Of a stretch of DNA of 64,000 bases, positions 28,675-56,457 are shown in pieces. The stretch comes from Bacteroidia bacterium. GTDB taxonomy: Bacteria; Bacteroidota; Bacteroidia; NS11-12g; UBA955. The DNA lies in the NCBI GenBank assembly GCA_044341025.1, contig JBIISM010000006.1, positions 7,581 to 71,580 of the forward strand. Direction: 5' to 3'. The notes under the pieces were generated by a model that saw only the letters and a program-made list of their open reading frames with translations, was not told the origin of the DNA and did no database searches. The translations under genes were made by a program, and so were the position numbers. The stretch's first letter is position 1. The number at the start of each line of letters is the position of its first letter.

Positions 28675-28681
28675 ATATTTA

Positions 28682-39805: not shown

Positions 39806-42394
39806 CTAAAACTGTTGTCCAATAAAGAAATGGAACTGACCTGGCTTGGTTGTTAGACCCGTATTTAAGGTTTTCCAATCAAATCCATACGCATAATCCA
39901 ATCCCAATAATCCAAACATCGGTAAGAACAATCTTATACCAACACCAGCACTTCTTTTTAAATCAAATGGATTGTAGGTTCTAGTATTTACCCATGCATT
40001 ACCCCCTTCTACAAATGCTTGCAAATAAATAGATGCACTAGGTGAATTGGTTACCGGGAATCTTAATTCACAGGTAAACTTATTAAATATCGCCGCACCT
40101 GAATTGCTAGATCCGCCAACAGCATTTTCTGTAATGGTTCTGTCAGGGTATCCACGCAATGAAATAATTTCAGTACCTATTTGTCCAAAACTGTTCAATC
40201 CGCTTCCTCCCACCATAAAACGCTCAAATGGCGACAAGCCAATGTCTTTGTTGTAATAACCCAAATAACCAAAACGCATCTTAGTGGCCAAAACAAATTT
40301 ACCAAATACTTTGTGGTACTGCTCTGCATCAAACTTCCATTTGTGGTATTCTATCCATTTGTATTTTTCGGTCAATGAAACAGCTGAATAGTCTTTATTT
40401 GTAAACTTAGATATTGGAGGCGTAGCGGCCAAACTGAATGTGAAAGTTGAGCCCCCTGTTGGAAATATCGGCTCATTTACAGAGCTCCTACTCAAAACAT
40501 ATTTAAATTCTACGTTGTTGCTTCTGCCTGTATTCAGTTGCAAACCAAATGCGCCATTTGCGTTGTTCAGTTCATATTGTTGTAAGCTGAATGAATAAAA
40601 TGAAGAGAAATAATCATCTGGCCATTTTAAACGTTTACCCAATGACAAAGAGAATCCGGTAATCTTAATAAAACGTTTGTCTGGATCTGTCCGCGGTCTA
40701 GCATCAAAAGATTGATTGGTTCTGTACAAACTGGAGGTAAACGAATTTGGCTTCTTTCCACCAAACCATGGCTCAGTGAATGAGAAATTATAAGATTGGT
40801 AGTACAATCCATTCGATTGTGCTCTGATGCTTAATTTTTGACCATCTCCAGAAGGCAATGGATTCCACATAGAAGGATGGAATAATTTACGCGTCGAAAA
40901 ATTATTCAAAGACAATCCAAGTGTTCCAACCAAACCGCCATAACCATATGACTGACCTTGGATTGCATTCCTATTGTTTCCACCCCAACCGCCCGACAAT
41001 TCAATTTGGTCGTTGGCCTTTTCAGATACAGTATATTCTATATCAACAGTACCAGCGGCAGGATTTGGAACTGGATTTACGCCCATCGCCTGAGGATCAA
41101 AATAACCCAATTGAGACAATTCTCGAATTGACCTTTGGATGTCACTTCTAGAAAATTTCTGACCTGGTCTTGTTCTTAATTCACGTAAAACAACGTGGTC
41201 GCTGGTCTTGGTGTTTCCTTTTACTATAATTTTGTTGTAAATGGCTTGCGAACGCTCAATAATTCTAACTTCTATATCAATACTATCATTCTCTACTTTT
41301 ACTTCTACTGGTGTAACACCGAAAAACAAATATCCATCATCCATATACAAACTCGAAATGTCCGTTCCGTTGGGACTGAAATACAAACGTTCATCCAACA
41401 CTGTCTGATCGTATATATCACCTTTCTTTAATCCAAGAACTCTGCCTAAATCTATACTGCTGTATTTGTTATTACCTGTAAATGTCACATTTCTAAAGTA
41501 ATACTTCCTTCCTTCGTTAACACCGATTTTGATAACCACTTTATTGGGACTGATACGCACAACCGAATCAAAAGAAATGCTTGCATCTCTATATCCCTTG
41601 CTGTTGTATTTTGTAATTACGCTTTTTAATTCCTCTTTATAGGTTTCTTCAACAAATTTTGAAGAGGCAAACAAATTGATTTTTTTACGTTGGCGCTTGG
41701 TTTTCTTTAAACTGCGTCTCAAATCCAAATCTGCCACATCGGCATTGCCAACAAACTCAATATCGTATACTTTTACCTTCTTGCCTTTGTCAATGGCAAT
41801 GCGCAAAATATCTTTATTTGGAGTTGTATCTGCTTCTTGCTTGAAATCAATTTTTACCCCATAAAACCCTTTTTTATAATAATGGCTTTTGATTTCACGT
41901 CTCAACTTGTTTAACATGTCTTCGTTAATCACCATACCCGCTTTAACGCTCAATTCTTCGCGTAAGGTTTTGGCTTCAGACTTGCCTATTCCTCTAATAC
42001 CAAAACGCGCCAAACGCGGGCGCTCTTGAACTTCTATAACCAAATATATTTTTCCGTCTACAATTTTCTTTGCATAGACACTAACAAATGAAAAATAGCC
42101 TTGCTTCCAAAGATTTTCAATGGCCTGTGATATTTCGTTTCCAGGTACTTTTATGCGCTGGTTAAAAGACAATCCAGTGTTAAAAATGACTATGTTTTTA
42201 TCAATGTATTTATTGCCTTTGGTTTCAATCGATACGATGGTATATTCTTTCGGCTTATTATAATCCAAAGGAAGATAATTCCGTGTAGAGTCTTGAGCCA
42301 TCAGTGTCGAAACACCGAAAACAGCCTGCAGGCAGAAAACAAGCGATAATGCAAAGTTTTTCCTATGGTTTAATTTGATCACTTGTTTTTCCAA
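39806..42394 (-). CDS. bamA: Outer membrane protein assembly factor BamA
   Basis: Signal peptide, then POTRA repeats and a C-terminal Omp85 beta-barrel (..GYGGLVGTLGLSLNNFS.., terminal ..FHFFIGQQF). 862 aa. Confidence 0.9.
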   Translation of the reverse strand: MEKQVIKLNHRKNFALSLVFCLQAVFGVSTLMAQDSTRNYLPLDYNKPKEYTIVSIETKGNKYIDKNIVIFNTGLSFNQRIKVPGNEISQAIENLWKQGYFSFVSVYAKKIVDGKIYLVIEVQERPRLARFGIRGIGKSEAKTLREELSVKAGMVINEDMLNKLRREIKSHYYKKGFYGVKIDFKQEADTTPNKDILRIAIDKGKKVKVYDIEFVGNADVADLDLRRSLKKTKRQRKKINLFASSKFVEETYKEELKSVITKYNSKGYRDASISFDSVVRISPNKVVIKIGVNEGRKYYFRNVTFTGNNKYSSIDLGRVLGLKKGDIYDQTVLDERLYFSPNGTDISSLYMDDGYLFFGVTPVEVKVENDSIDIEVRIIERSQAIYNKIIVKGNTKTSDHVVLRELRTRPGQKFSRSDIQRSIRELSQLGYFDPQAMGVNPVPNPAAGTVDIEYTVSEKANDQIELSGGWGGNNRNAIQGQSYGYGGLVGTLGLSLNNFSTRKLFHPSMWNPLPSGDGQKLSIRAQSNGLYYQSYNFSFTEPWFGGKKPNSFTSSLYRTNQSFDARPRTDPDKRFIKITGFSLSLGKRLKWPDDYFSSFYSFSLQQYELNNANGAFGLQLNTGRSNNVEFKYVLSRSSVNEPIFPTGGSTFTFSLAATPPISKFTNKDYSAVSLTEKYKWIEYHKWKFDAEQYHKVFGKFVLATKMRFGYLGYYNKDIGLSPFERFMVGGSGLNSFGQIGTEIISLRGYPDRTITENAVGGSSNSGAAIFNKFTCELRFPVTNSPSASIYLQAFVEGGNAWVNTRTYNPFDLKRSAGVGIRLFLPMFGLLGLDYAYGFDWKTLNTGLTTKPGQFHFFIGQQF

Positions 42395-43133
42395 ATCTTC
42401 TTTCGCGTTTTTGATAGTCTACAATAGCTCGATAAAAGGCCTCTTGGTCGAATTCCGGCCAATAGATATCGGTAAAATAAAATTCACCATAGGCCATTTC
42501 CCAAAGCATAAAATTACTGATGCGGAATTCTCCGCTGGTTCTTATTAACAAATCCAGCTCCGGTAATGCTCCAGTATTTAAACTTTCGCTGATTGTTTTT
42601 TCATTGATATCTTCAACCTTAATGCTTCCATTTTGGACGGATTCGGCAATTTGTTTGGTTGCCTGAACAATATCCCAACGGGCGCTGTAGTTTAAAGCCA
42701 ATACCAAATCCATGCTGTCATTGTTTGCAGTTAAAGCCATCGCTTCCTGCAATTCATTGTATGCGTCTTTGGGCAATGCTTCAATATTGCCAATGGTCCG
42801 CAAACGGATGTTGTTTTTTTGCAATGTTGCCACCTCTTTCCTAATGGTTCTAACCAATAAGGCCATAATGGCTTTCACTTCCAATTGGGGTCTATTCCAA
42901 TTCTCTGTGCTGAATGTATAAAGGGTTAAATACTTAACACCCAAGCGCGCTGCTGTTTCTGCCACTGTGCGAACAGATTTAACACCGTACTCGTGACCAA
43001 CAAGCCTAGGAAGTGCTCTTTTTTTTGCCCATCTCCCATTGCCATCCATGATAATGGCAATGTGTTTCGGTAATTTCTCTCGATCTATTTGAGGTAAAAG
43101 ACTATCGGTGGGCATCTGCTGAGCTCTAAGCAT
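42363..43133 (-). CDS. uppS: Isoprenyl transferase (undecaprenyl diphosphate synthase)
   Basis: The region HIAIIMDGNGRWAKKRALPRLVGHEYG is the UPP synthase catalytic motif. Confidence 0.9.
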   Translation of the reverse strand: MLRAQQMPTDSLLPQIDREKLPKHIAIIMDGNGRWAKKRALPRLVGHEYGVKSVRTVAETAARLGVKYLTLYTFSTENWNRPQLEVKAIMALLVRTIRKEVATLQKNNIRLRTIGNIEALPKDAYNELQEAMALTANNDSMDLVLALNYSARWDIVQATKQIAESVQNGSIKVEDINEKTISESLNTGALPELDLLIRTSGEFRISNFMLWEMAYGEFYFTDIYWPEFDQEAFYRAIVDYQKRERRFGKTSDQIKP

Positions 43134-43191
43134 GCAAAAGTATGATTTATTTTCCGAAAATTATAACGAAGTTAATAGCTATTAGATACAA

Positions 43192-44028
43192 CTACATACC
43201 TGAACATGGATCGCCAATAACATTCCTAAAAGTTAGCGTAATTCCGACCATAAAATACCAATCCTTTAAATTGGGGTCTCCCCGCATATTACCACCTTTT
43301 ATAGGCTTGTTGTTGTTTAAAGTTTCAGGGTGCGAATAGTCGCCCGCCCCAGCACCCTGCTTTGCAACTATTGAATTGTAATCGACATATTGTCCTTTTG
43401 TGTCGTCGAGATAATCGGTAAATGTTTTTCGGAAGCCCATTTCCAATCCGATTACCGTTCGGCGCTTCACATTAAATTTATAGCCCAAGCCCAATGTCAA
43501 GGAAGGTTGAATAAAGGCGTATTGCCTTTTGTCGTTTACATTCTGGCCTTCCGTTCCAATGTCCCTTAATTCCAATTTGTCTCCACTTGGCAAACGGTGA
43601 ACTGGATTAAACATAAACATATTAAAACCGGCAAACACAAAAGTAGTCGAATTTTCTTCGTGCTGGTTGGCGTTGATGCCAAAAGGTTTGAAATTAAATT
43701 CCACATTGTAACCCAATTCGTAAATATCACTTTCAAAAGAGATGTTCCTGTATGTATTCGCCGAAAAATTTTGATCGCTGCCTGAGATACTGGCATAGGT
43801 AAATTGATATCTGCTGCTAAAATATTTTGAGTGGTGGTATTTGTACATCAAGCCAATAGCTGGATGCGACTCAGACAAAACAATTTCAGGCGCAATGTCA
43901 CCCGTGTAATTACTTGCCCCTAAAAAAAGACCAAACTCTGTCACGCCATTCCTGAACCTTTGCGCATAAGCATCAAAGGACAACAGCAAAGACAGCAGTG
44001 TCAAAAACCTAAAATTAAAATAAAGCAC
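43192..44028 (-). CDS. Outer-membrane beta-barrel protein (DUF6089-like), paralog 1
   Basis: Signal peptide MLYFNFRFLTLLSLLLSFDAYAQ and alternating amphipathic strands. It shares motifs with the adjacent gene (G..LGGSNY.GD/E, RKTFTDYLDD, a C-terminal GDW..Y...G.TL). It sits upstream of uppS-bamA, as DUF6089 genes usually do. Confidence 0.5.
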   Translation of the reverse strand: MLYFNFRFLTLLSLLLSFDAYAQRFRNGVTEFGLFLGASNYTGDIAPEIVLSESHPAIGLMYKYHHSKYFSSRYQFTYASISGSDQNFSANTYRNISFESDIYELGYNVEFNFKPFGINANQHEENSTTFVFAGFNMFMFNPVHRLPSGDKLELRDIGTEGQNVNDKRQYAFIQPSLTLGLGYKFNVKRRTVIGLEMGFRKTFTDYLDDTKGQYVDYNSIVAKQGAGAGDYSHPETLNNNKPIKGGNMRGDPNLKDWYFMVGITLTFRNVIGDPCSGM

Positions 44029-44049
44029 GTGTAATTTTCTCCCGATAGG

Positions 44050-44943
44050 CTAGAAGTTAAAGCAAGGTTGACGTCCACCATGAATACGGTAAGTCAAAGT
44101 CAAACCGCCAATAACATACCAATCTTTGGTTGCAGAGTTTCCTCTTAAATCACCATTTTCAAATGGCGTTTGTCCCACTTCCATGCTTCTGTCTTTTAAT
44201 GCGACAGCCATTGGACCACTAGCGCCTCCAACGATAATATTGTCAACGTAGATTGATGAAACATCATCTAAATAATCTGTAAATGTTTTTCTAACGCCAA
44301 ATTCAAATCCAAACGCCCAATAGTCGTCCAATTGCCACTTCGCCCCTAAGCCTACAGGCACACTTAATTGGGTTAAAGAGTAACGTCTTTTATCATTAAA
44401 CTTGGTGGTTTCCTGTCCTTCTGTTCCCAATGGTTGCAATTCAATCCAGTCGCCATCTTGGGCCTGTAAAGAAGCGTCCATCATATACGATTGGTAGTTA
44501 AACTGGGCTTTAGGATTAAAACGGAAAACAGAAACTCCTGCGAACAAATAGGGTGACCATCCATAAGATGCTTTGGTTTGCTCATAACCTCTGATGTTCC
44601 ATTCTGCTTGAACTGAAAATTCAACGATGTCTGATTTGAAACTTAAATTTCTTCTGCCTCTGTATGCATCTGATGCAAAGTTTTTATCCGAACCTTCGAT
44701 TTTACCATAAATGGCCGTGCCTTTAAATGTCAAATAGGGACCGTAGTTGTATCGGCATATTAAGCCACCCGCAAACTTGGTCTTATTCCACAATGGCATA
44801 TAGCCATCGGTAAATTCACCCATGTAGTTTGATCCTCCTAAGTAGGGACCGAAATCAAGAGAGCTCACTTTCTTTTGAGAGAATGCCATAAATGGCACTA
44901 AAAGCAGCAGGGTTAGGGTTATAATTAATCTATTTTTCATCAA
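44050..44943 (-). CDS. Outer-membrane beta-barrel protein (DUF6089-like), paralog 2
   Basis: Signal peptide MMKNRLIITLTLLLLVPFMAFSQ. Clear paralog of 43192-44028, with RKTFTDYLDD present in both. Confidence 0.5.
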   Translation of the reverse strand: MMKNRLIITLTLLLLVPFMAFSQKKVSSLDFGPYLGGSNYMGEFTDGYMPLWNKTKFAGGLICRYNYGPYLTFKGTAIYGKIEGSDKNFASDAYRGRRNLSFKSDIVEFSVQAEWNIRGYEQTKASYGWSPYLFAGVSVFRFNPKAQFNYQSYMMDASLQAQDGDWIELQPLGTEGQETTKFNDKRRYSLTQLSVPVGLGAKWQLDDYWAFGFEFGVRKTFTDYLDDVSSIYVDNIIVGGASGPMAVALKDRSMEVGQTPFENGDLRGNSATKDWYVIGGLTLTYRIHGGRQPCFNF

Positions 44944-45032
44944 CGCACAAAAAACAATTTACGAAATTAGTACTTTTCAATGATAAAACGAAAAAACCAG
45001 GGAATTATTTTACGAATAGAAAACCTTTGACT

Positions 45033-45081
45033 TTACAAGTCTGTGGTCAAGACTTGTAAGTTTTGCTTGCGGAAGCAAAAA
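45033..45081 (-). promoter_or_regulatory. Two tandem perfect hairpins immediately 3' of the adhesin stop codon (terminator / RNA stability element)
   Basis: Hairpin 1 is TTACAAGTCT-gtggtca-AGACTTGTAA (10-bp perfect stem, 45033-45059). Hairpin 2 is TTTTGCTT-gcgg-AAGCAAAA (8-bp perfect stem, 45061-45080). No long T-run follows on the minus strand, so this is not a canonical intrinsic terminator. Confidence 0.35.
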
Positions 45082-45086: not shown

Positions 45087-48000
45087 CTATCGAATGAGGT
45101 AAAAGTAACCCCTAACATAGCGCCATGGGGTTTTCTTGCCTTTGTACTTTATTAGGTATACGAAGTAATCTGTTTGACACAATTGGCCTTTATAAGTTCC
45201 ATCCCAACCAGCACGTGCATCGTCTGTTTCAAAAACTTTCTCTCCCCAACGGTTGTAAATCTCGATATTGGCTGTTTGGATGGATCCTGAATTAATTTTA
45301 AATACATCATTGCTTCCATCGTCATTAGGCGTGAATGCAGTTGGTATAAATAAAGTAACTGTATCTAAAACACAAATCTTCACATTAAAACTATCACTGC
45401 ATCCCCCTTCATTTTTAATCTTTAAAGTAATCGTATATTCGTCCGTATCACCTTGGTAAGTATGGGAAGGATTGCTTGTTGGGTCATACGGAATTTTGGT
45501 TCCATCACCAAAATCCCAAACGCCTGTTATGCCCCCTTCACTTAAATTGATGATCTGCAAAAGCGCATTGTTGCTGTACAAACATTGCCCTGCGGGTGAA
45601 CTGTTAAAATAAGCCCTTATCCTTGAATAACCTGGTATGGTTGCAACAGTATCATAGCTGCATAAAGTTTGGGTATTTTGAACCTTTACTTTGTAGGTTG
45701 TTCCCACTGGCGCTGAAATACCCGCTGTATTTTGTACTGGTATTGTATTCCACAAGTAGCTGTATGGTCCATTTCCATTCATCACCAAGTTGGCAAATCC
45801 AATATTCCCAAAACATTGCTTAGGGCTCGTATTCACTGAACCATAAAATGGTGGATGTACATAAATTTGTTTGGTTTTTACCACTGAATCGCTGCAACCA
45901 TCTTTCAAAACCACCCTGTAATTTACCGTTGTTCTAGGCTGTATATAAATGTTTTGAACGTTATACGCCCCATTGCTCCAAAGCAAGTTGTAAGTTCCTG
46001 TTCCGCCCTTTGCATTGGTGCTTAAGGTGACAGGGACTCTAGGGCAAACCGTATCTTTATCGGCCATCAAATCCAGTTTTAAGGTATCGCCAACATCGAG
46101 GGTAAAGCTCCTGCTGTTTATGCATTTGCCTGTGCCCACTTTGTATACGATTTTATGGCTACCAGTTCCTGCTATCGATGGATTAAATGTGTTTCCAACG
46201 ATGCCTGCTCCGCTTAAAACACCTCCTATGGGACTTAGAACCAAATTCACCAACGTATCGCGCAAACAATAATTAGGAACCAAGCCTGAAATGATTGGAT
46301 TTGGCAAAGGATTCACCGTCACAAATAGTGTATCTTGGCATTTGCCTGGCAAACTAAACAATATCCTGTGCTTGCCTGCACCTGCTATAGATGGGCTAAA
46401 CATTCCGCTTACTGCATTGGTAATTCCTGTGCCTGAAAAACTCCCTTTTCCTGTATTGTTCTTTAGTTTGAACGGATCATCTGCCACACAGAACACCGTA
46501 TCCTTTTGAATGTCTGAACGCGGATAAACATAAATGATTATTGTATCCTTACACCCATTTGCATCTGCAACAATTTGATTGTATGTTCCTCTGCCTGCTA
46601 GCGATGGACTGAATTTCTGGTAATACAAACTGCTGCCAACTATGCCTTTACTTCCTGTGAAAATTGCATTCCAAGGATCGTTGTACAAATATTGATACCG
46701 CATGTAATAGGCCGTATCACTGACACAATTTTTTACAGTATCTGCATAAAAACGGGTATAGCGCAAGTACATTATCTTATCGTCTTTACAACCATTCTTT
46801 GCGTGGTAGGTTAAAATTGAATACACAAAGGTTGAACGGCTTGGGACTTTAAAAGAGTCGGCCGCAAAAGTACCCGAAAATGAATCGAGCATACCCTTTC
46901 CGGTCCAAAAACCTCCCGCGGGAAGTCCAACAGGTAATGTTCTCAAACCCGCATCAGGACATGCAATTTCATCCCAACGTGCATCCACATCTTGAATATT
47001 TCTTTGCAAAGTATCTTTACAACCGTTGATGCTGTAGATGTATAATTTATTTCCTGCGCCAGCGGCATTGGGCGAGTTAATTCCTTTGCTGCTATTGCTC
47101 ACCGAAGGACCAGTCCAAAGACCGCCTATCGGATAAAACTTAAATGTATCGGCACTTACCGACTTGCAAATGGTGTCAAATTGCCTAATAACTAGGCCAT
47201 CGATATTGATTGTTTTATTGCTGCTGCAGCCGTTCCATGTATAAGTAACCGCAAATGAACCCGCTGTATTTGTTGGCGTTATGATGCCTGATGCATTGAT
47301 GTTTGGCCCTGACCAAGTACCTCCGCTGGGTGTAAAATTTGTGACCAAAAATGGGGCTGTTCCGGGGCAGGCTGCATTCGGTGGGCCTGCATTGATTGCT
47401 TTTACTGTAACGATTACGGAATCTCTACATGACCCTACGGTGTAATACGCTTTGAAAATACCACCCCCAGAAATACCTGGATCAAAAGTACCATTGGCCG
47501 AATTGCTAATACCTATGCCAGACCAAGAACCTCCGCTCGGTTGAGCGCTTAAATTAAAGGCTGACGCAGATTGACAAACCGTGGTATCCTTTTGTGCTAC
47601 GGGGGGATCTAAAACCAAAATATCTACGGTGTCTCTACCTGGCACTGAAACACCATCGTTAACCTCCAGAATGTATTGGGTGCTGCTGCTTGGGCAAACC
47701 GTTTTTGGTGGCGCTCCCGTTAAGCCACCGCTTATCCAATTATAAGAATAGTTGCTAGAGTTCCCTCCAGTTAATGTGGCTGTCAATAGAGCACAGGAGC
47801 CTTTGCATAAAATTATTTTATTTGTTTTTAAAACCAAATTAATGGGGCAATCTGTTATTTTAAAATTGAGTTTTGCGTTAATTTTCCATAAACTGTCGCA
47901 GGCATCTTTGAAAGACGAATTGAAATTGAGCAGGTAATTTCCGCTTCTGTTTAAACCTGAAACAAAATACACATCGAAGGTATTGCTTTCGTTTTTTGAG

Positions 48001-48629
48001 TCACAATTGATAGCCGTAACATTTGATACTATAGTTGACAATACACCGCTCAATTTAAAATTGGCAGCTTTTACGGAATCGCAATGAAACTTTTGATCGA
48101 GCACCACACGAATTTTGTTTGAATTACAAGTAGGGTCAGCAATCGCAGAAAACTTCGGCTGTGGAACAGAAGTAATTTTAGCTTCCCAATTTAAATCCCA
48201 TCCATCGCAAACAATATTGATATCTGAATGGAAATAAAAAGTAACACAAGAATCGCTGGCAGTTATTGCAATGGGGTTGTTAATCGTGCCAGTATACGTT
48301 CTGATTAAGGTCCCTGAGGTGTCCTTCCCTTTGTAAACCCGCAAATAATCTGAAATCGATTCACAACAAAACGGGCCATTAAACTTAATGTTAATGGTAC
48401 TCGCTCCTTTAACACAAATGGTGAAAATCAAATTTTCGTTGTTGGCATATTTTTTTGCCGATTGTTTATTCCCTTCGCTATCTGTGAGTTTGCCTTTGCA
48501 TGCATAGACCTTTGCATTGGCCATTTTATAGGTGGTTTGGGCAAAACCAAATTGAACAAAACAAATGCACAAAAACAGAATCAGGTAATGATTCGAGGCT
48601 TTCATTCTATATGTCTTTTCACTTTTCAA
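45087..48629 (-). CDS. Giant cell-surface adhesin-like protein with Ig-like/PKD repeats and a T9SS type B (gliding motility-associated) C-terminal domain
   Basis: Signal peptide (..HYLILFLCICFVQFGFAQ). Many ~80-aa repeats with the G.W.G.GI....G.F.P pattern. A PKD motif WDFGDGTKIPYDPTSNPSHTYQ is present. The C-terminus FIPTAFTPNDDGSNDVFKI...IEIYNRWGEKVFET...WDGTYKG is type B CTD, TIGR04131-like. Confidence 0.8.
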   Translation of the reverse strand: MKSEKTYRMKASNHYLILFLCICFVQFGFAQTTYKMANAKVYACKGKLTDSEGNKQSAKKYANNENLIFTICVKGASTINIKFNGPFCCESISDYLRVYKGKDTSGTLIRTYTGTINNPIAITASDSCVTFYFHSDINIVCDGWDLNWEAKITSVPQPKFSAIADPTCNSNKIRVVLDQKFHCDSVKAANFKLSGVLSTIVSNVTAINCDSKNESNTFDVYFVSGLNRSGNYLLNFNSSFKDACDSLWKINAKLNFKITDCPINLVLKTNKIILCKGSCALLTATLTGGNSSNYSYNWISGGLTGAPPKTVCPSSSTQYILEVNDGVSVPGRDTVDILVLDPPVAQKDTTVCQSASAFNLSAQPSGGSWSGIGISNSANGTFDPGISGGGIFKAYYTVGSCRDSVIVTVKAINAGPPNAACPGTAPFLVTNFTPSGGTWSGPNINASGIITPTNTAGSFAVTYTWNGCSSNKTINIDGLVIRQFDTICKSVSADTFKFYPIGGLWTGPSVSNSSKGINSPNAAGAGNKLYIYSINGCKDTLQRNIQDVDARWDEIACPDAGLRTLPVGLPAGGFWTGKGMLDSFSGTFAADSFKVPSRSTFVYSILTYHAKNGCKDDKIMYLRYTRFYADTVKNCVSDTAYYMRYQYLYNDPWNAIFTGSKGIVGSSLYYQKFSPSLAGRGTYNQIVADANGCKDTIIIYVYPRSDIQKDTVFCVADDPFKLKNNTGKGSFSGTGITNAVSGMFSPSIAGAGKHRILFSLPGKCQDTLFVTVNPLPNPIISGLVPNYCLRDTLVNLVLSPIGGVLSGAGIVGNTFNPSIAGTGSHKIVYKVGTGKCINSRSFTLDVGDTLKLDLMADKDTVCPRVPVTLSTNAKGGTGTYNLLWSNGAYNVQNIYIQPRTTVNYRVVLKDGCSDSVVKTKQIYVHPPFYGSVNTSPKQCFGNIGFANLVMNGNGPYSYLWNTIPVQNTAGISAPVGTTYKVKVQNTQTLCSYDTVATIPGYSRIRAYFNSSPAGQCLYSNNALLQIINLSEGGITGVWDFGDGTKIPYDPTSNPSHTYQGDTDEYTITLKIKNEGGCSDSFNVKICVLDTVTLFIPTAFTPNDDGSNDVFKINSGSIQTANIEIYNRWGEKVFETDDARAGWDGTYKGQLCQTDYFVYLIKYKGKKTPWRYVRGYFYLIR

Positions 48630-48632
48630 TAC

Positions 48633-49082
48633 CTATTTTGTTATGGTTATGTTTGGCGTATTTATAGAATTAGACCAATTACCAGCCCTGTCTCGCAGTT
48701 TAAGATTAAATTGGGTCAACTCTGAATTTCCTGTACCCAATAAAAATGTATTTTTAATTTGCACGCTTATAATCCCTGTTATTTTAATTTCCGAGCCTGG
48801 CGGTGACAATGGCTTAACAAAGTAATAATCCGCATTGGCCAATCGTCTGTCTTTTACAAACAAATCATTTTTATCAGGGTTATCTTCACCTATATCGCCA
48901 TCGGCATCGGTGTACTCAAACCGAATAACCAAGCTGTCCTTGAATTCTTTAATAGAAGTGGAATTCACATCCAAAAATTTTATCACAGGAACCGAACTGA
49001 GCGATGAATCCTTGCTGCAAGACACAAAGGCAAGCAAAACCAAAAAAACAATAAAAGACGTTAGATATTTATTGATCTTCAT
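48633..49082 (-). CDS. Hypothetical lipoprotein (operon with DUF1501 cluster)
   Basis: Signal peptide plus lipobox (LLAFVSCSKD). Separated by 3 nt from the adhesin start codon. Confidence 0.5.
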   Translation of the reverse strand: MKINKYLTSFIVFLVLLAFVSCSKDSSLSSVPVIKFLDVNSTSIKEFKDSLVIRFEYTDADGDIGEDNPDKNDLFVKDRRLANADYYFVKPLSPPGSEIKITGIISVQIKNTFLLGTGNSELTQFNLKLRDRAGNWSNSINTPNITITK

Positions 49083-49084
49083 AA

Positions 49085-50035
49085 TCAGTTAAGCCTTAAG
49101 GCAAAATATTTAACAAAATTGAATGAGGTGCTAGAAGAAGGAATGAATACTTTGGGATTCACCTTGTCGGAGGTCTGGGTTCTTACCCAAATAACATCGC
49201 CTGAAGTGCCTATATCGGCTATATTTACCGTGATACTGTGCCAATAATCTACATTGGTTCCTGATATCCCTTTTGAATTAAATGCATTGGTTTCTAATGC
49301 CATATTTTGAACCTTACTTGAATCGTAATTATTAGGGTTTAAAGAAAAATTGATATTGGTGCCAAAAAACTGATTGACAGGTGTTTTATCGTCGGTATAA
49401 GCCACCCAAATTTTTAAAGTGCTTGTTCCGCTTGGAACCACTAAAGGATTGTATCCATTTCTTGTAATGGGCGAACTAGATCCATTTGCAAAAGCTATTA
49501 AGCCTCCAATCTGAGGAATAAAATCGATGCTGTTGGCTGTATTTCCAAATTGGTCTTTGGCACCTGCGTTAATCCAATTGCTGATATTTTGAATGTACTC
49601 GTTTTTCTTAGCTTCCCAATCGCTGCCCGGATCGATGGTTAATGGCATAACGCCTTGGGATCCTGGAATAAAAACATTTAGTCGATGCAGCAACATGCTT
49701 TTAGCCGCATCGCCCGGAACCACACGCAAATTATACTGCGGATTATTCGGATCGGTATTGGTGCTAAGACGGTTAATTATCGAATTGTATGAACTTTCAA
49801 CCGAACGAAAATCAGGTTCAAAATTGCCATCGTGGCAACCACTGTTTGAACAGGTTGGCTTGAAAATATTTTTATGCAACCCTTCAATAGAGTTTGGGTC
49901 AATTGGTTTGTCGCTGAGCACAGGCCCTTTGTTGGTGTTGTCCCAATTGTCGTATGGATTTCTAGAGTTGGAACCCTTTTTACACGCAATTAAAGCCGTC
50001 AGAAGAAAAAGACTAAAAATAAATTTCATCTTCAT
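49085..50035 (-). CDS. Lipoprotein with a PSCyt1-like (Planctomycete cytochrome c-like) segment with a degenerate heme motif
   Basis: Lipobox LTALIACKK. The segment IFKPTCSNSGCHDGNFEP...NLRVVPGDAAKSMLLHRL resembles the PSCyt1 pattern C..CH...G.L.L...V.PG.P..S.L. However, the Cys spacing is CxxxxCH rather than CxxCH. Confidence 0.45.
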   Translation of the reverse strand: MKMKFIFSLFLLTALIACKKGSNSRNPYDNWDNTNKGPVLSDKPIDPNSIEGLHKNIFKPTCSNSGCHDGNFEPDFRSVESSYNSIINRLSTNTDPNNPQYNLRVVPGDAAKSMLLHRLNVFIPGSQGVMPLTIDPGSDWEAKKNEYIQNISNWINAGAKDQFGNTANSIDFIPQIGGLIAFANGSSSPITRNGYNPLVVPSGTSTLKIWVAYTDDKTPVNQFFGTNINFSLNPNNYDSSKVQNMALETNAFNSKGISGTNVDYWHSITVNIADIGTSGDVIWVRTQTSDKVNPKVFIPSSSTSFNFVKYFALRLN

Positions 50036-51372
50036 ATACGGTCAAATAAACTCATGGATTCAAAATCGATCAAACCGGCCGCTTTAACTTCGTCTTTAAA
50101 CCCTAAGATATCGGCAATGGTTAAAGCCATATCGGTTACTTTTCCTACAGGATTGGTTTCATTGCCTACTAAAAGATTAGAGGGTACATTTTGCCCAACC
50201 ATACCACCAAATACACGCAATGAATTGCTGTCTCCGTGGTCGTAACCATACCAATCATTCTCGTCTTGAATGGGGTTGTGCTGTAAGTTACGGCCACATT
50301 CTGGCGCAAAAGCCATAATGGTCTTGCCACTCATTTCAGGAATTTGGGTTTGTATGTAATTCCATAAAAAGCCCATGGCATGATCCGCTCTGTGCATGGC
50401 TTGCAAGTAGCCCGTATAATTGCCGTGGCATCCGTCAATATTGCTAAGGTTTACCACCAATAATTTTGGTTTAAACACGCGCAATACCTCTGCTGCATAG
50501 CCAATGGTTGAACCATCACCTCCTGAAACCGGCGGCATAGGCAATAAACCTGAGGCTTGTCTTTGAAACGTATTGGCTATAAATTCCTTGATTTGTGTCT
50601 TCTCATCGTCGGTATTCCTAATACCTGGCATATCTCCTTTTTTGATGTTAAAGGTATTGTCCAGAAAATTTTTCATTTTATAAACAGGCTCTAGCTCTTC
50701 TTGTGGATGGTAAATTTTAGCGTTAGAAAGCGCTGCATACCCATCGCTTCCAAAGGTTATTCCCGGAGCGAAAAAATTAGCGCCATATTGCAAACCAAAA
50801 TCTGGATGCTTGCTCGAATTTAACAAGGGAACGGAATTGGATATGGTGTTGCCAATAAACCAAGTTTCGGTGGCTTTAAACCCACCAAATCGCCTTGCAT
50901 ATTCAAAAATTGTTGGGTTCATCGGTCTAACTTTCAAACCCTGGCCCTGCACTCTGCTGCCCGTAATCAATGAATTCAAACCACCATAATGCCCTCCAGA
51001 TATGGCCCGCATTTCTTGAAAAATAGTGCCTTGTTTTTGCAAAGACTGTGAAAGAATTCTTGGAATGGGTTGGCTGCCATTAGTCTGTCCTGCCGGTGTC
51101 AGTCCATAGGCTATTTTAGATGCAGGGGCAGCGCCTTCAAGCATATTGTACAAAATATTCCCTTCAACATTATAGCCTTGGCTATCGGCCAAGTAACGCT
51201 GTAAAATGGAGTCTTGTTGACGCAATCCGCCTCCGAATATCACCAACACCACATGGTCGGCTTTGGGTGCATTGGTCCGGGCAAACAAACGTCCCGAAGG
51301 AAGGATGTAGGGCAAGACCATACCGCCTGCGGCAAGTGTTGCTGATTTGATGACAAATTCTCTTCTTTTCAT
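50032..51372 (-). CDS. DUF1501 family protein (alkaline-phosphatase/sulfatase-like fold) with twin-arginine signal
   Basis: Tat motif in MKRREFVIKSATLAAGGMVL. DUF1501 blocks are present: HVVLVIFGGGLRQQD, LLVVNLSNIDGCHGNY and IMAFAPECGRNL...GYDHGD...VFGGMVGQN (the SEFGR...GTDHG-like region). Confidence 0.7.
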   Translation of the reverse strand: MKRREFVIKSATLAAGGMVLPYILPSGRLFARTNAPKADHVVLVIFGGGLRQQDSILQRYLADSQGYNVEGNILYNMLEGAAPASKIAYGLTPAGQTNGSQPIPRILSQSLQKQGTIFQEMRAISGGHYGGLNSLITGSRVQGQGLKVRPMNPTIFEYARRFGGFKATETWFIGNTISNSVPLLNSSKHPDFGLQYGANFFAPGITFGSDGYAALSNAKIYHPQEELEPVYKMKNFLDNTFNIKKGDMPGIRNTDDEKTQIKEFIANTFQRQASGLLPMPPVSGGDGSTIGYAAEVLRVFKPKLLVVNLSNIDGCHGNYTGYLQAMHRADHAMGFLWNYIQTQIPEMSGKTIMAFAPECGRNLQHNPIQDENDWYGYDHGDSNSLRVFGGMVGQNVPSNLLVGNETNPVGKVTDMALTIADILGFKDEVKAAGLIDFESMSLFDRI

Positions 51373-51381
51373 AGGTTTGAT

Positions 51382-51885
51382 TTAATAGAACATATATTCA
51401 TCGGATGCGGCAAACGCTGTGTAAACGAGCTCCGGTCTAAAATTAGGATTGGATTTATTGGCGTTTATAAAATTGGTAAACCAAGTTTTCTCTGCCTCGG
51501 TTGGTCTGCGGATAAAAAACCGGATAAAGGTTTCTTCAATAAACCTTTCGGTGCTGTCTGTCATCATTTTACGGCTTGGCAATTTGACATTTGCACTATT
51601 CATGTAATTGCTAATGATAACTTCATTGATTAGCGCCTTATCACCACAGCTTTGCATAACCCTATCGATGCGACTCAGTTCATTGATTGAAGAAGGCCTT
51701 TGAAATAAATTGGTTCTTAAGATGCTGTGAAATTCTATGTTTGATTTCGATTTATCTTTATCTAAATTATTCCCATAGGTATTGGTATCAATTACTTCGT
51801 AGTTATTGTTATCCTTTTTTTTGCAGGCCGAAAGCCCAATCAAAAACAGCAGGAAAAAAGCCAGTTTAAAAGTGTGCATATTCAT
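51382..51885 (-). CDS. Lipoprotein with DUF1549/DUF1800-like L-x-x-R-x-P-T-x-x-E motif
   Basis: Lipobox LIGLSACKKK. It carries the motif FFIRRPTEAEKTWFTNFI, related to the motifs in the upstream gene. Its start overlaps the upstream gene by 20 nt. Confidence 0.5.
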   Translation of the reverse strand: MNMHTFKLAFFLLFLIGLSACKKKDNNNYEVIDTNTYGNNLDKDKSKSNIEFHSILRTNLFQRPSSINELSRIDRVMQSCGDKALINEVIISNYMNSANVKLPSRKMMTDSTERFIEETFIRFFIRRPTEAEKTWFTNFINANKSNPNFRPELVYTAFAASDEYMFY

Positions 51886-52777
51886 CGCTTGTTAAAATAT
51901 TTTCTTGTACGTTTTGTAAACTCTTATCGGTGTAAAAATCCAATATCAGGTTATATGTCTCTTGGGTTGTTGGTTCTCTGCCCACTAAAGTTAAATAGCA
52001 CCATTTGATCATCCCTTCGTAGTACTCTCGAGAATTGCAAAGCATTTGGCAATAAGAGGGTTTGTTGTCAGCAAAAGCACCAAACAAACTACCGCCTTTT
52101 CCAGATTCTATTATGGGATAAGAAATTGCGAATTCATCGCGGGTTGGAAAACGGAAGAACAAATCATCGAACGATGCATTCACAAAATTCAAGGTATTCA
52201 TATTGATGACGTCGTAAATTGGATTATCCAACATGGCGGCATACATGTCGGAAATGCCAATAATGCCTAACTGATAAAGCCGTCTCGATTTCAGAACATT
52301 TTGACAACGGTTAATAGTCACCATGGCAGAAAACACCCCTACAGAATCGCCGTTTAGTCGGGATACCAGAACAGCAAACTGGGCATTGCCAATTGCTCCG
52401 TAAAACTCCTCTTCTCCAGCGCCTTCTAATAGCCGTGCTTTACTTAAATCGTATAGTCTTTGGTAGTATGCTTTTTTATAAGACGAATCACCTGGCACAT
52501 AAATAGAATCCGTCATGAGTCTTTTAATCAATGACTTTCGAACACCATAGTTTAAATCACCGCCACGCAAAACCGCCACGTCTCTAATGACTTCGATGTC
52601 GAGCGGTTCGCGCCCCAACAAATCAATGTACAATCGGTTGATGTAATTCTCTACTTTAACCGTTGGAACATCGTCGTAATTTTTGGGCGTATTGTTAGGT
52701 ACAAGAACCTCTTTATTCTTACAAGAAACAAGCATTAATAGAAAAATAAAAAATAACCACTGTCTGTTTTTGTTCAT
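51866..52777 (-). CDS. Lipoprotein with repeated DUF1549/DUF1800-like L-x-G-R-x-P-T-x-x-E motifs
   Basis: Lipobox LMLVSCKNK. Two copies of the motif are present: YIDLLGREPLDIEVIRDV and YLTLVGREPTTQETYNLILDFY. This is the first gene of the operon. Confidence 0.5.
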   Translation of the reverse strand: MNKNRQWLFFIFLLMLVSCKNKEVLVPNNTPKNYDDVPTVKVENYINRLYIDLLGREPLDIEVIRDVAVLRGGDLNYGVRKSLIKRLMTDSIYVPGDSSYKKAYYQRLYDLSKARLLEGAGEEEFYGAIGNAQFAVLVSRLNGDSVGVFSAMVTINRCQNVLKSRRLYQLGIIGISDMYAAMLDNPIYDVINMNTLNFVNASFDDLFFRFPTRDEFAISYPIIESGKGGSLFGAFADNKPSYCQMLCNSREYYEGMIKWCYLTLVGREPTTQETYNLILDFYTDKSLQNVQENILTSDEYAHF

Positions 52778-52891
52778 AGGTCAAACTGAATTTTATTCTT
52801 TCCTAATTACAAACGTATGGAATTATTTTAAGATAAACAAATTACTGAAAGAAAACCATTTGTATAAACAACTGATTTTTAGAAAATAAGC

Positions 52892-52919
52892 AAAAGGAGC
52901 AGTTTTAAATACTCCTTTT
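52892..52919 (-). terminator. Hairpin terminator downstream of the E1 alpha/beta gene
   Basis: Stem AAAAGGAG / CTCCTTTT with a 12-nt loop. On the minus strand it is followed by the T-rich stretch TTGCTTATTTTCT. Confidence 0.35.
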
Positions 52920-52934
52920 ATTGGGAAATATTTT

Positions 52935-55016
52935 TTAGCTGTACAGCAATTCTTCAATTGCCTTGGCAACTTTATCTGCATTTGGCAACATTTCTTTTTC
53001 CAAGCCGATGTTCAAAGGAATTGCTGGCAAGTTGGCCGAGCCTATAGTTTCTACAGGTGCATCCAAATACTTAAAACAGTTCTTCTGGATACGTCCTGCT
53101 ATGGCTTCGGCAAACGAATTTTTCAAAGTCTCTTCTGTCAAGACCATTACTTTTCCGTGTCTTTTTGCTGAAGCATAGATGGCCTCATCGTCACAGGGAT
53201 TCAAGGTTCTTAAATCCAATATTTCTACATTGCCTTCAAATTGCTTAGACGCATTTAAGGCCCAATGCACACCCATTCCGTAGGTAATAATAGCCATCGA
53301 TTCTCCATACTTCAAAGCTTTTTCTGAGGCTTCTTGCACAATACGCGCTTTACCCAAAGGCACCACATAATCTTCAGATGGCTCTGGGCATTTAGCGGCA
53401 TCGGTTCCAGGAACTTTGCTCCAATACAAGCCTTTGTGTTCAAACATCACCACAGGATTTGGATCGTAGAATGCGGCTTTTAGCAAACCTTTCATATCGG
53501 CGGCATTGCTTGGGTACACCACCTTAATGCCTTTAATTTGTAAAATGCTGCTTTCAACCGTTCCAGAGTGGTAAGGACCTCCACCACCATAAGCCCCTGT
53601 TGGTATTCTTATTAACGATTGAATTGGAAACTTTCCGTTCGATAAATAACAGCTCTTAGACAGTTCTTCCACCAATTGGTTGATGCCCGGCCATATATAA
53701 TCGGCAAATTGAATTTCAACAATTGGCTTGCAACCAACAGCGCTCATTCCGGCTGTTGAACCAACAATATAGGCTTCCTGAATTGGCGTGTTAAACACCC
53801 TGTCTTTTCCATATTTTTTTGCTAAAGTGGCCGCTTCTCTAAACACACCACCCAAGCGCACGCCAACGTCTTGTCCATACAACAAGGCTTCTGGATGCTT
53901 ATTTAAAATCTCATCACAGGCAAACAAAGCAGCATCCACCATAACGATGGGTTCTCTGCCCTCTGGAGATCGAGTTCCTTGTTCTTCTGTTATCGGGCTT
54001 GGGGCAAATTCATGCAAATACAAGGTTTCTGGCGCAGGATCAGCTGCATCTACAGCGCGCGCAAAACTGTCGTCAATAAACAGCCGAGCATCTTTTTGAA
54101 TTTGGTCTAAGCTCGATTCTGAAACCGCCAAATCTAACAATACATTTCTTAGTTTTGGATACGGATCGTCTTTTAAATCGATTTCCAAATCGTCTCGGTA
54201 CCATTCGCTTCTAACGCCACTTGTGTGATGACCGAGTAAGGGCACCTTGGCATGAAGCAACATTGGTTTTCTGTTTTTACGCACCCAGTCTATGGCAGAC
54301 TTCATGTCTTCGTAGCTTTCTACAAAATCGCTTCCGTCGGTACGAGCGCGTTTAAGACCTTTGAAACCGGCGGCAAATTCATAGGCATCCATGGCGCGCA
54401 TTTCGTCGCCACTGGCAGAAATACCCCAATCGTTGTCTTGCACCAAATACAAAATTGGCAGTTCTTTCAAAACCGCCATTTGTAAAGCTTCACTCACCTC
54501 CCCTTCGGTCATACTGCCGTCTCCTATGCTGCATAAAACAATTGGTTTTTCAGCGGTGGTAATTAAGTTTTGTGACTCCTTGTATTTGATAGCATGGGCC
54601 ATGCCCGTGGCAGGAATGGCTTGCATACCGGTTGCACTACTTTGGTGGGGCATGGTAGGCATGTTGTCGCGCCTTAAGGAAGGATGCGAATAATAAGTAC
54701 GTCCACCTGAAAAAGGATCATCGGCTTTGGCCAAAAGCTGCAACATCAATTCGTAAGGCTCCATTCCCATTGACAGGAGCAAACTCTCGTCGCGGTAATA
54801 AGGCGCAGCGTAATCTATTGATTTCAACAAAAAACCGCAAGCAATCTGAATGGCTTCATGGCCTTTACTGGTTGAATGCACATATTTTGTAATCGGCCTA
54901 TTTTCATCGTATACATCAGCCATTGCTCTGGCTTTGCAAATGAGGGTATAAGCCTCTAATAATGTTTCTTTGGTTACCATTTCGCGTTCACTCTTATCAT
55001 CAAAAACGATTTGCAA
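52935..55016 (-). CDS. Fused alpha/beta TPP-dependent 2-oxoacid dehydrogenase E1 component
   Basis: The N-terminal half is E1-alpha-like, with a TPP-binding GDG...NN region (SIGDGSMTEGE...VQDNDWGIS). The C-terminal half is E1-beta/transketolase-like. At 693 aa it matches the fused Bacteroidota form. Confidence 0.85.
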   Translation of the reverse strand: MQIVFDDKSEREMVTKETLLEAYTLICKARAMADVYDENRPITKYVHSTSKGHEAIQIACGFLLKSIDYAAPYYRDESLLLSMGMEPYELMLQLLAKADDPFSGGRTYYSHPSLRRDNMPTMPHQSSATGMQAIPATGMAHAIKYKESQNLITTAEKPIVLCSIGDGSMTEGEVSEALQMAVLKELPILYLVQDNDWGISASGDEMRAMDAYEFAAGFKGLKRARTDGSDFVESYEDMKSAIDWVRKNRKPMLLHAKVPLLGHHTSGVRSEWYRDDLEIDLKDDPYPKLRNVLLDLAVSESSLDQIQKDARLFIDDSFARAVDAADPAPETLYLHEFAPSPITEEQGTRSPEGREPIVMVDAALFACDEILNKHPEALLYGQDVGVRLGGVFREAATLAKKYGKDRVFNTPIQEAYIVGSTAGMSAVGCKPIVEIQFADYIWPGINQLVEELSKSCYLSNGKFPIQSLIRIPTGAYGGGGPYHSGTVESSILQIKGIKVVYPSNAADMKGLLKAAFYDPNPVVMFEHKGLYWSKVPGTDAAKCPEPSEDYVVPLGKARIVQEASEKALKYGESMAIITYGMGVHWALNASKQFEGNVEILDLRTLNPCDDEAIYASAKRHGKVMVLTEETLKNSFAEAIAGRIQKNCFKYLDAPVETIGSANLPAIPLNIGLEKEMLPNADKVAKAIEELLYS

Positions 55017-55893: not shown

Positions 55894-56457
55894 TTATTTC
55901 ATCGACGAAATAATCCACAATGTAACAGCAACCAAAATGGTTCCGGCCATAATAAATATTTTAATTTCCTTGGTCTTGTCGGTATACTCCACCCTGTTGC
56001 TGTTCATGGTAATTTGCACTGGCGGAAAATCATTAACAGGTTTAATGGATAAATTATAAACCATCAAGGTTTTCTTTTTCTTGCCTTGCAAAAGGCCCGG
56101 CAACCATTTCGGCATGCTGCTTACAATGCGCTCAAACTCACTTGAAACAATGGCATTGCTGCCCGACAAGTGCGTGTACTCGGATACCGAGCCATCTTTG
56201 TTCACAAAGAATGAAAATTTGATGGTTTCTCCAGTAAATTCAAGACTTTGTGCATTGGTTCTTAAATTAAAACGCGTTTCAATAAACCTGAAAAAATCTT
56301 GATCGCCACCCTCGAAAATTGGTGAGCGGGTAATGGTGTCTTCGGGCGCGATGTAGCTCGAAGTATCCACATTGTTGCGAAACACTTCAACTTGAGCGCT
56401 AAGCAATACGCCCTTTGAGAATAAAATTATAAGCCCTAGTTTCTTTAATGAAATCAT
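55894..56457 (-). CDS. TonB C-terminal-domain-like protein (energy transducer TonB family)
   Basis: The N-terminus is hydrophobic. The segment SPIFEGGDQDFFRFIETRF is typical of Bacteroidota TonB-C domain proteins. A C-terminal TM segment is present. Its start overlaps the upstream T9SS cargo gene stop by 4 nt. Confidence 0.5.
   Translation of the reverse strand: MISLKKLGLIILFSKGVLLSAQVEVFRNNVDTSSYIAPEDTITRSPIFEGGDQDFFRFIETRFNLRTNAQSLEFTGETIKFSFFVNKDGSVSEYTHLSGSNAIVSSEFERIVSSMPKWLPGLLQGKKKKTLMVYNLSIKPVNDFPPVQITMNSNRVEYTDKTKEIKIFIMAGTILVAVTLWIISSMK

Follow-up and report, generated by a model that had tools for sequence, protein, structure and literature searches.

Genes encoding DUF1501 proteins are paired with DUF1800 genes in Proteobacteria. 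In Planctomycetes, Verrucomicrobia and Lentisphaerae (hereafter PVC bacteria), DUF1501 forms together with the PSCyt1, PSCyt2 and PSD1 domains a conserved, multiplied and membrane-targeted module that possibly takes part in electron transport and has no assigned function (Kamneva et al. 2012, PMC3542564), and PSCyt genes have also been reported to pair with unknown families (He et al. 2017, PMC5615132). A second group of described systems concerns the type-B cargo of type IX secretion systems (T9SS), which is anchored via PorP-like proteins in a manner that is not fully understood (PMC9143113). The locus described here shares traits with both. It lies in a stretch of 64,000 nucleotides (nt) from Bacteroidia bacterium GCA_044341025.1 (contig JBIISM010000006.1, positions 7,581 to 71,580), called the window throughout, and consists of six head-to-tail open reading frames (ORFs) on the minus strand, running from 52777 to 45087 and named G1 to G6. 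Four of them encode small lipoproteins (G1, G2, G4 and G5), G3 encodes a protein with a twin-arginine translocation (Tat) signal and a predicted alkaline-phosphatase fold, and G6 a type-B T9SS surface protein. We show by comparison across genomes that G1-G6 make up one conserved unit, the core of which is a cell-envelope module, its G1-G5 set being found beyond Bacteroidota, and we infer that the cluster is related, very distantly and in split form, to the DUF1501 and PSCyt/PSD modules of Planctomycetes and Verrucomicrobia. To the overall picture, a split DUF1501-PSCyt-like envelope module to which Bacteroidota have added a surface arm, we assign a probability of about 0.5.

Scanning one genome per species with aligned G3 homologues yielded at least 534 genomes with a G3 relative; the conservation counts rest on the best 80 loci of these, in which gene order was traced by tblastn with the window proteins. 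All 80 come from metagenome-assembled genomes (MAGs) labelled Bacteroidia, Flavobacteriales, Saprospiraceae, Lewinellaceae and similar, several of which stem, by record title, from the Lake Mendota time series and from Swiss and Czech lakes, and one of them, L001, is 97-100% identical to the window. The synteny for which the first-pass annotation had proposed to look in related genomes is found across these 80 loci, with the G1-G6 order and the single strand kept in nearly all loci with sufficient sequence (about 70 species-level genomes). Over about 70 loci the median junctions are -20, +11, -4, -1 and 0 nt, the sizes of G1 to G5 stay at about 296-314, 157-171, 442-449, 310-324 and 143-155 residues, and G6 measures 1153-1184 residues, a few outlying ORF calls aside. 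G6 follows directly after G5 in 54 of the 55 loci with at least 3.7 kb past G5, and its start is visible in 13 of the 15 loci that are cut off soon after G5. The order of the block holds down to identities of 57% (G3) and 32% (G6), the matches running over the full length and taking in the sorting domain, and more distant Bacteroidota contigs (for example L082 and L086) retain all six genes as well. The flanks vary among clades: only in the closest relatives does the block have an E1 gene, two DUF6089 barrels and the UppS and BamA genes beside it, rpsI-rpsB-tsf-pyrH lies 3' of G6 in one clade and other genes do so in others, and no conserved seventh gene stands beside the block across clades. 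Because order, sizes and overlaps are kept while the flanks turn over, the comparison argues that the six genes are a selected unit and no chance neighbourhood. The same data bear on the idea that G6 is functionally unrelated to G1-G5 and travels as a passenger in their transcription unit, for which the occurrence of G1-G5 subsets without G6 (see below) can be cited. However, adjacency, the start/stop overlap and the length of G6 (1153-1186 residues) are kept though the flanks have all changed, and adjacency that persists at such low identities is unusual for unrelated neighbours; we therefore regard the passenger explanation as very unlikely.

The layout within the window fits the same conclusion. 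All six ORFs lie where they had been placed before, co-directional and tightly packed (Table 1): G1 and G2 overlap by 20 nt, 9 nt separate G2 from G3, G3 and G4 overlap by 4 nt, 2 nt lie between G4 and G5, and G6 begins 3 nt past G5, or 27 nt past it if the ATG at 48605 is used. A terminator-like hairpin would mark the upstream edge of the unit and a terminator-like inverted repeat its downstream edge, while internal terminator-like matches are at chance level (13 found, 12.4 expected from shuffled sequence). The promoter-like pattern listed in Table 1, TTG-N19-TAnnTTTG, occurs a single time on the minus strand across 45087-52940, and its TAnnTTTG box is present in seven of eight aligned upstream regions, the window counted among the eight; no riboswitch or leader RNA was found by Rfam in or 5' of the cluster. 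G1-G6 probably form a tight, co-transcribed unit, as the first-pass annotation had held, in which a Tat-exported protein of predicted sulfatase fold and four lipoproteins are coupled to a type-B cargo, a coupling that is conserved in the 54 of 55 loci mentioned above.

Pfam and NCBIfam scans of G1-G5 and of 24-26 orthologues of each gave nothing above threshold; their relationships are read here from profile comparisons, motifs and models. In G4, which has the lipobox LIAC (Cys invariant in 24-26 orthologues), a C..CH segment resembling PSCyt1 had been noticed. There is some likeness, in that hhalign relates the N-terminal domain of G4, modelled as four helices (predicted local distance difference test, pLDDT, 86), to part (residues 80-131) of a protein from Singulisphaera annotated [quoted passage not shown] at 85% probability (E 6.6e-6), and to an alignment of two such PSD1/PSCyt proteins at 51%; the motif itself, however, is C-x4-CH and not C-x2-CH, and no Pfam match was obtained for any of the 26 orthologues examined. 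Weak matches to a dihaem c-type cytochrome family are seen in 17 of these 26. A Cys spacing of four and a G-x-MP motif occur in all 236 of 236 family members, the latter 60 residues past C-x4-CH in G4, and the invariant alignment reads PTCxNSGCHDGxFEPDFR ... RVxPG..S ... G.MPL ... WIxxGA, whereas C-x-x-C-H is absent from all six proteins. PDB sequence searches returned nothing significant for G4 or its N-terminal domain, and a profile search with that domain found members of the same family only, some of them of 155-170 residues and devoid of the C-terminal domain, with no PSCyt1-annotated protein among the 120 matches listed. On this basis the domain looks like a class-I c-type cytochrome and like PSCyt1, with His and Met rightly placed and a non-canonical attachment motif, and we put forward the hypothesis that G4 binds haem. 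About half of the recovered G4 family (some 119 matches listed) are proteins of 155-230 residues that do not have the immunoglobulin (Ig)-like C-terminal domain; one of 161 residues (L082, 10001-10486) stands inside an otherwise complete six-gene block.

The first-pass annotation had called G3 a Tat-exported DUF1501 protein of sulfatase fold. The Tat signal is there (Table 1), and so, by prediction, is the fold. For the AlphaFold model of G3 (pLDDT 79, predicted template-modelling score 0.84), Foldseek gives as matches sulfatases, alkaline phosphatases, phosphonate monoester hydrolases and an LtaS-type enzyme (E 1e-8 to 1e-6, template-modelling score 0.35-0.45), because of which we assign the modelled fold to the alkaline-phosphatase superfamily. 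Membership of DUF1501 was rejected: neither Pfam nor NCBIfam matches G3 at E<=1, PF07394 (gathering score 27 bits) included, hhalign probabilities lie at 0.5-8%, and Sulfatase, Phosphodiest and Metalloenzyme are all commoner than DUF1501 among the relatives. An exhaustive profile search retrieved 848 cluster representatives in all, and the Pfam matches of 42 distant relatives were Sulfatase (14), Phosphodiest (11), Metalloenzyme (8), DUF1501 (7, best E 1e-6) and TAT_signal (3), whereas none of the 120 G3 homologues among the matches listed carries any Pfam domain and PDB sequence searches found no relative. When tblastn was run with G3 against plasmids, the matches were solely proteins named "alkaline phosphatase family" or sulfatase-like, the gene surroundings of which were unrelated. 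With genuine DUF1501 proteins, for which those of Singulisphaera acidiphila plasmid pSINAC01 served as reference, G3 nonetheless has motifs in common by consensus comparison: GG-x-x-Q after strand 1 in place of the usual Asp, E-(C/F)-G-R, (Y/R)-D-H and D-x-x-x-T-I-x-x-x-L-G. The stretches aligned by hhalign include GG..Q after strand 1 and E-x-G-R ... D-H. The conserved Asp/His/Glu/Arg set of G3 comprises DxxH, D-H, E-x-G-R and D-H, and the Cys/Ser-x-x-x-R signature of sulfatases was not found in it. Our reading is that G3 represents a separate, unnamed family of the alkaline-phosphatase clade which is DUF1501-like in its motifs without being a member of DUF1501. Residues 22-30 (window 51283-51309), PYILPSGRLFA at the expected Tat cleavage point, are invariant or nearly so in 26 homologues; such conservation is unusual for a signal peptide, so this stretch may stay uncleaved or have a second role.

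The remaining lipoproteins are smaller. G1, G2 and G5 have the lipoboxes LVSC, LSAC and FVSC, the Cys of which is invariant in alignments of 24-26 orthologues. G1 and G2 contain helical repeats that end in (S/T)-D-E-Y-x-x-F and hold (L)-G-R-x-P-T-x-x-E, the motif reading LLGREPxxxE in G1 and G2 being two repeats of the same kind; hhalign relates the two proteins over the motif at 81%. DUF1549-like repeats had been claimed for two of the lipoproteins, and the (L)GRxPTxxE motif is indeed in both, but judged by the profiles the repeats fit DUF4214 and the phycobilisome-linker domain better. Counted by E-value, DUF4214 (PF13946) matches 15 of 24 G1 and 15 of 26 G2 orthologues (best E 3.6e-6) and PBS_linker (PF00427) 11 of 24 G1 orthologues (best E 5e-7), against 7 of 24 G1 and 0 of 26 G2 orthologues for PSCyt2/DUF1549 (PF07583; best E 9e-4, sub-threshold). 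The G1 of the window stays below the gathering score of all three, with 18.4 versus 28.7 bits for PBS_linker, 13.8 versus 23.2 bits for DUF4214 and 14.7 versus 29.8 bits (E 0.03) for PF07583. Its hhalign probability to a PSD1/PSCyt protein is 7-8%, and its profile meets phycobilisome linker chains in the PDB at a borderline E of 0.007-0.05, where nothing significant was obtained for G2 or G5. G5, mostly beta-strand by its sequence pattern and matched by no family in the Pfam and NCBIfam scans, orthologues included, has an acidic loop (Table 1) of invariant pattern Y-x-D-x-D-G-D-x-G...D, aligned in a Myxococcales homologue too, which resembles a calcium-binding loop. The suggestion that the partner function is split over small lipoproteins gains from these results: with the G4-PSCyt1 alignment and the motifs of G1 and G2, the cluster recalls a DUF1501 and PSCyt/DUF1549 pairing taken apart.

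G6 had been described as a giant adhesin of 1180 residues with a PKD domain and a type-B sorting domain. Both domains are present, the latter with 62 bits for TIGR04131 (cut-off 35, E 4.5e-17) and 64.7 bits for CHU_C (PF13585; cut-off 27, E 8e-18), and a CUB domain that the first-pass annotation had missed was found near the N-terminus (Table 1) and again in the G6 orthologues of L082, L083 and L086. From the ATG at 48605, which is also the start in a public gene call, the protein begins MKASNHYLILFLCICFVQFGFAQ, read by eye as a normal N-terminal Sec signal peptide. Its middle is a run of repeats over about 900 residues, every one of which contains G-G-x-W-(S/T)-G-x-G and a pair of conserved cysteines, and we read these cysteine-paired segments as Ig-like. 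What did not stand was the giant adhesin: with 1180 residues and a conserved length, G6 is neither giant nor variable in the way of SprB-type adhesins. In 52 orthologues conservation is even along the length with hardly any indels; of the 38 cysteines, 30 recur in 90% or more of the sequences. This uniformity led us to reject a variable adhesin, and bears the signature of a constrained structural component rather than of a fast-evolving adhesin; an electron conduit was rejected as well, no haem motifs being present. No PorP_SprF gene adjoins G6 in the window, where its neighbours are DUF6089 barrels, and no PorP/SprF gene regularly accompanies the block across clades; in one distant locus, L086, a PorP_SprF gene lies directly 3' of G6.

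The block also occurs without G6. A Myxococcales-labelled MAG (GCA_009692535.1) has genes for 301, 180, 483, 310 and 182 residues with the same overlaps as G1-G5, of which those corresponding to G1, G2, G4 and G5 align by hhalign at 95% (full length), 98%, 98% and 90%, the 483-residue protein being the G3 relative, and no G6 is found 3' of this block. To our knowledge, the Myxococcales lineage has no T9SS. Another contig has a G6-less variant of 278-187-452-326-137-134 residues, and further partial variants comprise genes for 302-459-171-325 residues and a contig with G1-G2-G3 only. These blocks bear directly on the proposal that G1-G5 are a periplasmic or outer-leaflet machine acting on G6, which they would modify, mature or anchor, for instance by transfer or removal of a phosphoester-linked group. 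Such a role would agree with the 54 of 55 co-occurrences and the overlapping stop and start codons, with the inclusion of envelope-polymer transferases (LtaS/EptA-type) in the fold to which G3 is assigned, LtaS-type Foldseek matches among them, and with the incompletely understood anchoring of type-B cargo (PMC9143113). However, the five-gene block in the Myxococcales MAG and the subsets on other contigs do without G6, and the cytochrome-like G4 has no place in this scheme. That G1-G5 are found without G6 speaks against G6 as their ancestral target, and the ancestral job of the module would not have been G6 processing. The earlier notion that the module modifies or anchors the adhesin is thereby weakened, and we consider it unlikely. 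Judged by its distribution, G6 is a later addition in these Bacteroidota that has been kept in lockstep since.

The contexts of more distant G3 relatives point to what the constant part may be. One distant G3-like gene adjoins a gene for a 1120-residue protein with LVIVD repeats and multihaem-cytochrome motifs (L092, 7282-10644), another one for 1153 residues with PKD domains and DUF4214 and PSCyt2 motifs (L091, 2529-5990), and P0360 (997 residues) is a G3-like protein fused to a cytochrome c7/c3-like tail, all of which is in line with the proposed split of the pairing. A contig from the Joint Genome Institute (JGI 3300048834; L085, 1-11800) has two G3-like genes of 425 and 427 residues and, after each, a short G4-like one (176 and 165 residues) whose product aligns to G4 at 99% in hhalign, and G1/G2-like genes are present too. 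By their sequence, then, the stable partnership is that of G3 with helical-repeat proteins, usually joined by a cytochrome-like protein. Around the genes of L085 stand three large multi-pass proteins, glycosyltransferase-C-like, and an SGNH-like one, as read from the sequence, followed by a family-2 glycosyltransferase and epimerases (by Pfam), a context that, for that lineage, hints at some connection with work on envelope glycans. Lone G3 genes were seen in two further places. In L059 (9056-11338) a 310-residue protein, which reads as thrombospondin-type-3 repeats with an OmpA-like C-terminus, ends 13 nt 5' of G3, and in L089 (6418-9254) G3 stands beside a PF00691 OmpA gene on the opposite strand.

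Several observations weigh against the picture of a split DUF1501-PSCyt-like module with an added arm. First, the link of G3 to DUF1501 is not significant by profile comparison (hhalign probability 0.5% to one Singulisphaera protein, 8% to three), and BLAST puts G3 closer to proteins labelled "alkaline phosphatase family" or sulfatase-like than to DUF1501. In the alignment G3 also has neither the Asp after strand 1 that is typical of the alkaline-phosphatase superfamily nor a nameable nucleophile, because of which it may be no hydrolase. Second, the match of G4 to PSCyt1 spans the second half of the domain only (RVVPG..S..MP..WI..GA), Pfam PSCyt1 (PF07635) matches 0 of 26 G4 orthologues at E<=0.5, and the Cys spacing, which is that of C-x4-CH in Bacteroidota and of C-x6-CH in the homologue from Myxococcales, would make an odd haem site. 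Third, the unit is not always intact, since a complete Bacteroidia chromosome has G2-G5 without G1 and G6, and G3 alone is found in some genomes, adjoining OmpA-family genes. Finally, G1, G2, G4 and G5 may sit on the periplasmic face or on the surface, and the homologues are all from uncultured genomes, none with a known biochemical function; among the homologue and locus records examined, every named member comes from a MAG and no cultured carrier was located.

With these points in mind, we can sketch how a split module with a surface arm might work. G3 would fold in the cytoplasm, probably with a metal or cofactor, and then be exported by Tat to the periplasm, where it would be the catalytic subunit, with a substrate of the ester type or a redox substrate. 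G4 would be its membrane-tethered, haem-binding (His/Met) partner, and G1, G2 and G5 would serve as lipid-anchored scaffold or substrate-binding subunits. G6 would be exported by the T9SS and retained at the surface by a PorP/SprF-like protein encoded elsewhere, its long repeat region carrying the CUB domain at the distal end, and could be the ligand-binding arm, in the role that fused carbohydrate- or protein-binding domains have in the PSCyt proteins of PVC bacteria. Tat export and the constant presence of a cytochrome-like partner speak for a redox-linked enzyme, the fold for ester chemistry; in any particular chemistry of the unit we have much less confidence than in the overall picture. 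Taken furthest, G1-G5 might be a widespread periplasmic system of Bacteroidota and Myxococcota, in which a Tat-exported, alkaline-phosphatase-fold redox or redox-coupled enzyme works with a dedicated mono-haem C-x4-CH cytochrome lipoprotein by a biochemistry shared with the many unexplained DUF1501-PSCyt modules of Planctomycetes and Verrucomicrobia, and which in Bacteroidota is joined across the outer membrane to a CUB-tipped T9SS rod as a trans-envelope capture-and-process device. This full version strikes us as speculative and rather doubtful.

The ester chemistry suggested by the fold could alternatively serve nutrient scavenging, with the CUB and PKD domains of G6 serving to bind a polymer or particle outside the cell, G3 freeing phosphate or sulfate as a phosphatase, sulfatase or phosphodiesterase and the lipoproteins acting as binding proteins. 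Besides the alkaline-phosphatase/sulfatase fold and the distant relatives that pass the Sulfatase and Phosphodiest models, one distant G3 homologue lies beside a gene for a family-2 glycosidase (GH2), secreted binding proteins often have CUB and PKD domains, and the carriers, inferred from record titles to be freshwater or marine, would live where phosphate is often limiting. On the other hand, no TonB-dependent transporter, SusD-like gene or regulator was found in or beside the block in any clade examined, the block stands among housekeeping genes, G3 has neither the metal-binding Asp after strand 1 nor an identifiable nucleophile, and the conserved cytochrome-like partner would be left unexplained; nor was a riboswitch or Pho-box seen upstream, although no search aimed at a Pho-box was made. 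On balance, scavenging seems to us an improbable explanation.

Table 1. The six genes of the cluster and the features in and around them, in window coordinates
Feature	Position	Strand	Description
G1	51866-52777	-	ORF, 303 aa
G2	51382-51885	-	ORF, 167 aa
G3	50032-51372	-	ORF, 446 aa
G4	49085-50035	-	ORF, 316 aa
G5	48633-49082	-	ORF, 149 aa
G6	45087-48629	-	ORF, 1180 aa; likelier start is the ATG at 48605
Twin-arginine motif of G3	51346..51372	-	MKRREFVIK; family consensus MKRREFIKK
Domains of G4			four-helix, cytochrome-c-like (N-terminal, aa ~50-156); sandwich of Ig-like type (C-terminal, aa ~175-316)
Invariant C-x4-CH of G4	49832..49852	-	CSNSGCH; candidate haem-attachment site
Acidic loop of G5	48867..48923	-	YTDADGDIGEDNPD; DGDGD motif; D, G, D positions invariant
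CUB domain of G6	48189..48500	-	aa 44-147; 34.5 bits against a cut-off of 21.4, E 2.7e-8
PKD domain of G6	45390..45542	-	aa 1030-1080; Pfam
Type-B T9SS sorting domain of G6	45090..45347	-	aa 1095-1180; TIGR04131 and CHU_C
Terminator-like hairpin	52891..52920	-	11-pair stem then T run, 3' of 2-oxoacid dehydrogenase E1 gene
Bacteroidetes-type promoter-like site	52810..52840	-	TTG-N19-TACGTTTG; ends 33 nt 5' of the G1 ATG; consensus match only
Inverted repeat, terminator-like	45032..45060	.	27-55 nt past the G6 stop codon

The surroundings of the cluster are those of an ordinary chromosome of about 39% G+C, with genes for GlmS, biotin carboxylase, FabH, PlsX, LpxD, BamA and UppS in the window. 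On the 3' side of G6 (39806-44943, minus strand) two DUF6089 beta-barrel genes are followed by UppS and BamA, the latter two with a 32-nt overlap. A second T9SS cargo of 932 residues is encoded 3.7 kb upstream of the cluster (window 56454-59252, minus strand). It has a sorting domain of type A (Por_Secre_tail) besides a PKD domain and five Ig_7 domains, and its gene overlaps one for a family-9 glycosyltransferase (59227-60246, minus strand). Farther away, window 28001-30000 has a G+C fraction of 0.30 versus about 0.38 elsewhere; the two minus-strand ORFs in this stretch, 28063-28674 and 28682-29554, have no Pfam match, and the adjoining gene (29715-31478) is transglutaminase-like.

Full-text searches turned up neither an account of a cluster of this kind nor data on the function of DUF1501 or DUF1800, and as far as they reached, no known type-B cargo shares a fixed operon with a Tat-exported enzyme and four lipoproteins. 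In Planctomycetes and Verrucomicrobia few gene sets are more multiplied than the DUF1501-PSCyt modules, which have had no function assigned to them since they were described in 2012 (PMC3542564, PMC5615132), and the split version offers separable parts, with the enzyme, the cytochrome-like domain and the helical repeats available as proteins of 150-450 residues. A type-B cargo in a fixed operon with a periplasmic module further suggests that some cargo are surface subunits of envelope-spanning assemblies and not adhesins that stand alone, and five protein families outside Pfam and NCBIfam could be defined from the cluster.

Taken together, the locus resembles four kinds of described systems and departs from each. 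The repeats of G1 and G2 resemble those of phycobilisome linkers (PF00427) and DUF4214 proteins in their (S/T)DEY-x-x-F ending and in model matches that are sub-threshold in most orthologues; unlike the linkers, G1 and G2 are lipoproteins of non-photosynthetic bacteria, and nothing suggests that they bind bilins or phycobiliproteins. With the alkaline-phosphatase superfamily, which includes sulfatases, nucleotide pyrophosphatases/phosphodiesterases, LtaS/EptA-type transferases and cofactor-independent mutases, G3 would share the fold and a C-terminal D-x-x-H ... D-H, but it fits no named family, is Tat-exported and has a constant cytochrome-like neighbour. G6 is like the cargo of the SprB-SprF (Flavobacterium johnsoniae) and PG1035-PorP (Porphyromonas gingivalis) systems in its type-B sorting domain and repetitive body (PMC9143113, PMC12618676), whereas it falls far short of SprB in size, keeps its length, cysteine pattern and sequence among orthologues, has an N-terminal CUB domain and, in the window, is not adjoined by a PorP/SprF gene as cargo of such systems usually is. 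Finally, as in the DUF1501-PSCyt modules, a gene for a Tat-signal protein of the alkaline-phosphatase clade stands beside a partner with a cytochrome-c-like domain and (L)GRxPTxxE helical motifs. Here, however, none of G1-G5 passes the Pfam models, there is no PSD1/DUF1553 domain, the motif is C-x4-CH in place of C-x2-CH, and the hosts are Bacteroidota and one Myxococcales MAG rather than PVC bacteria. The partner is four small lipoproteins here and one protein of 800-1000 residues there, and where the DUF1501-PSCyt partners often carry added binding domains, the binding arm is here a separate, T9SS-exported surface protein.

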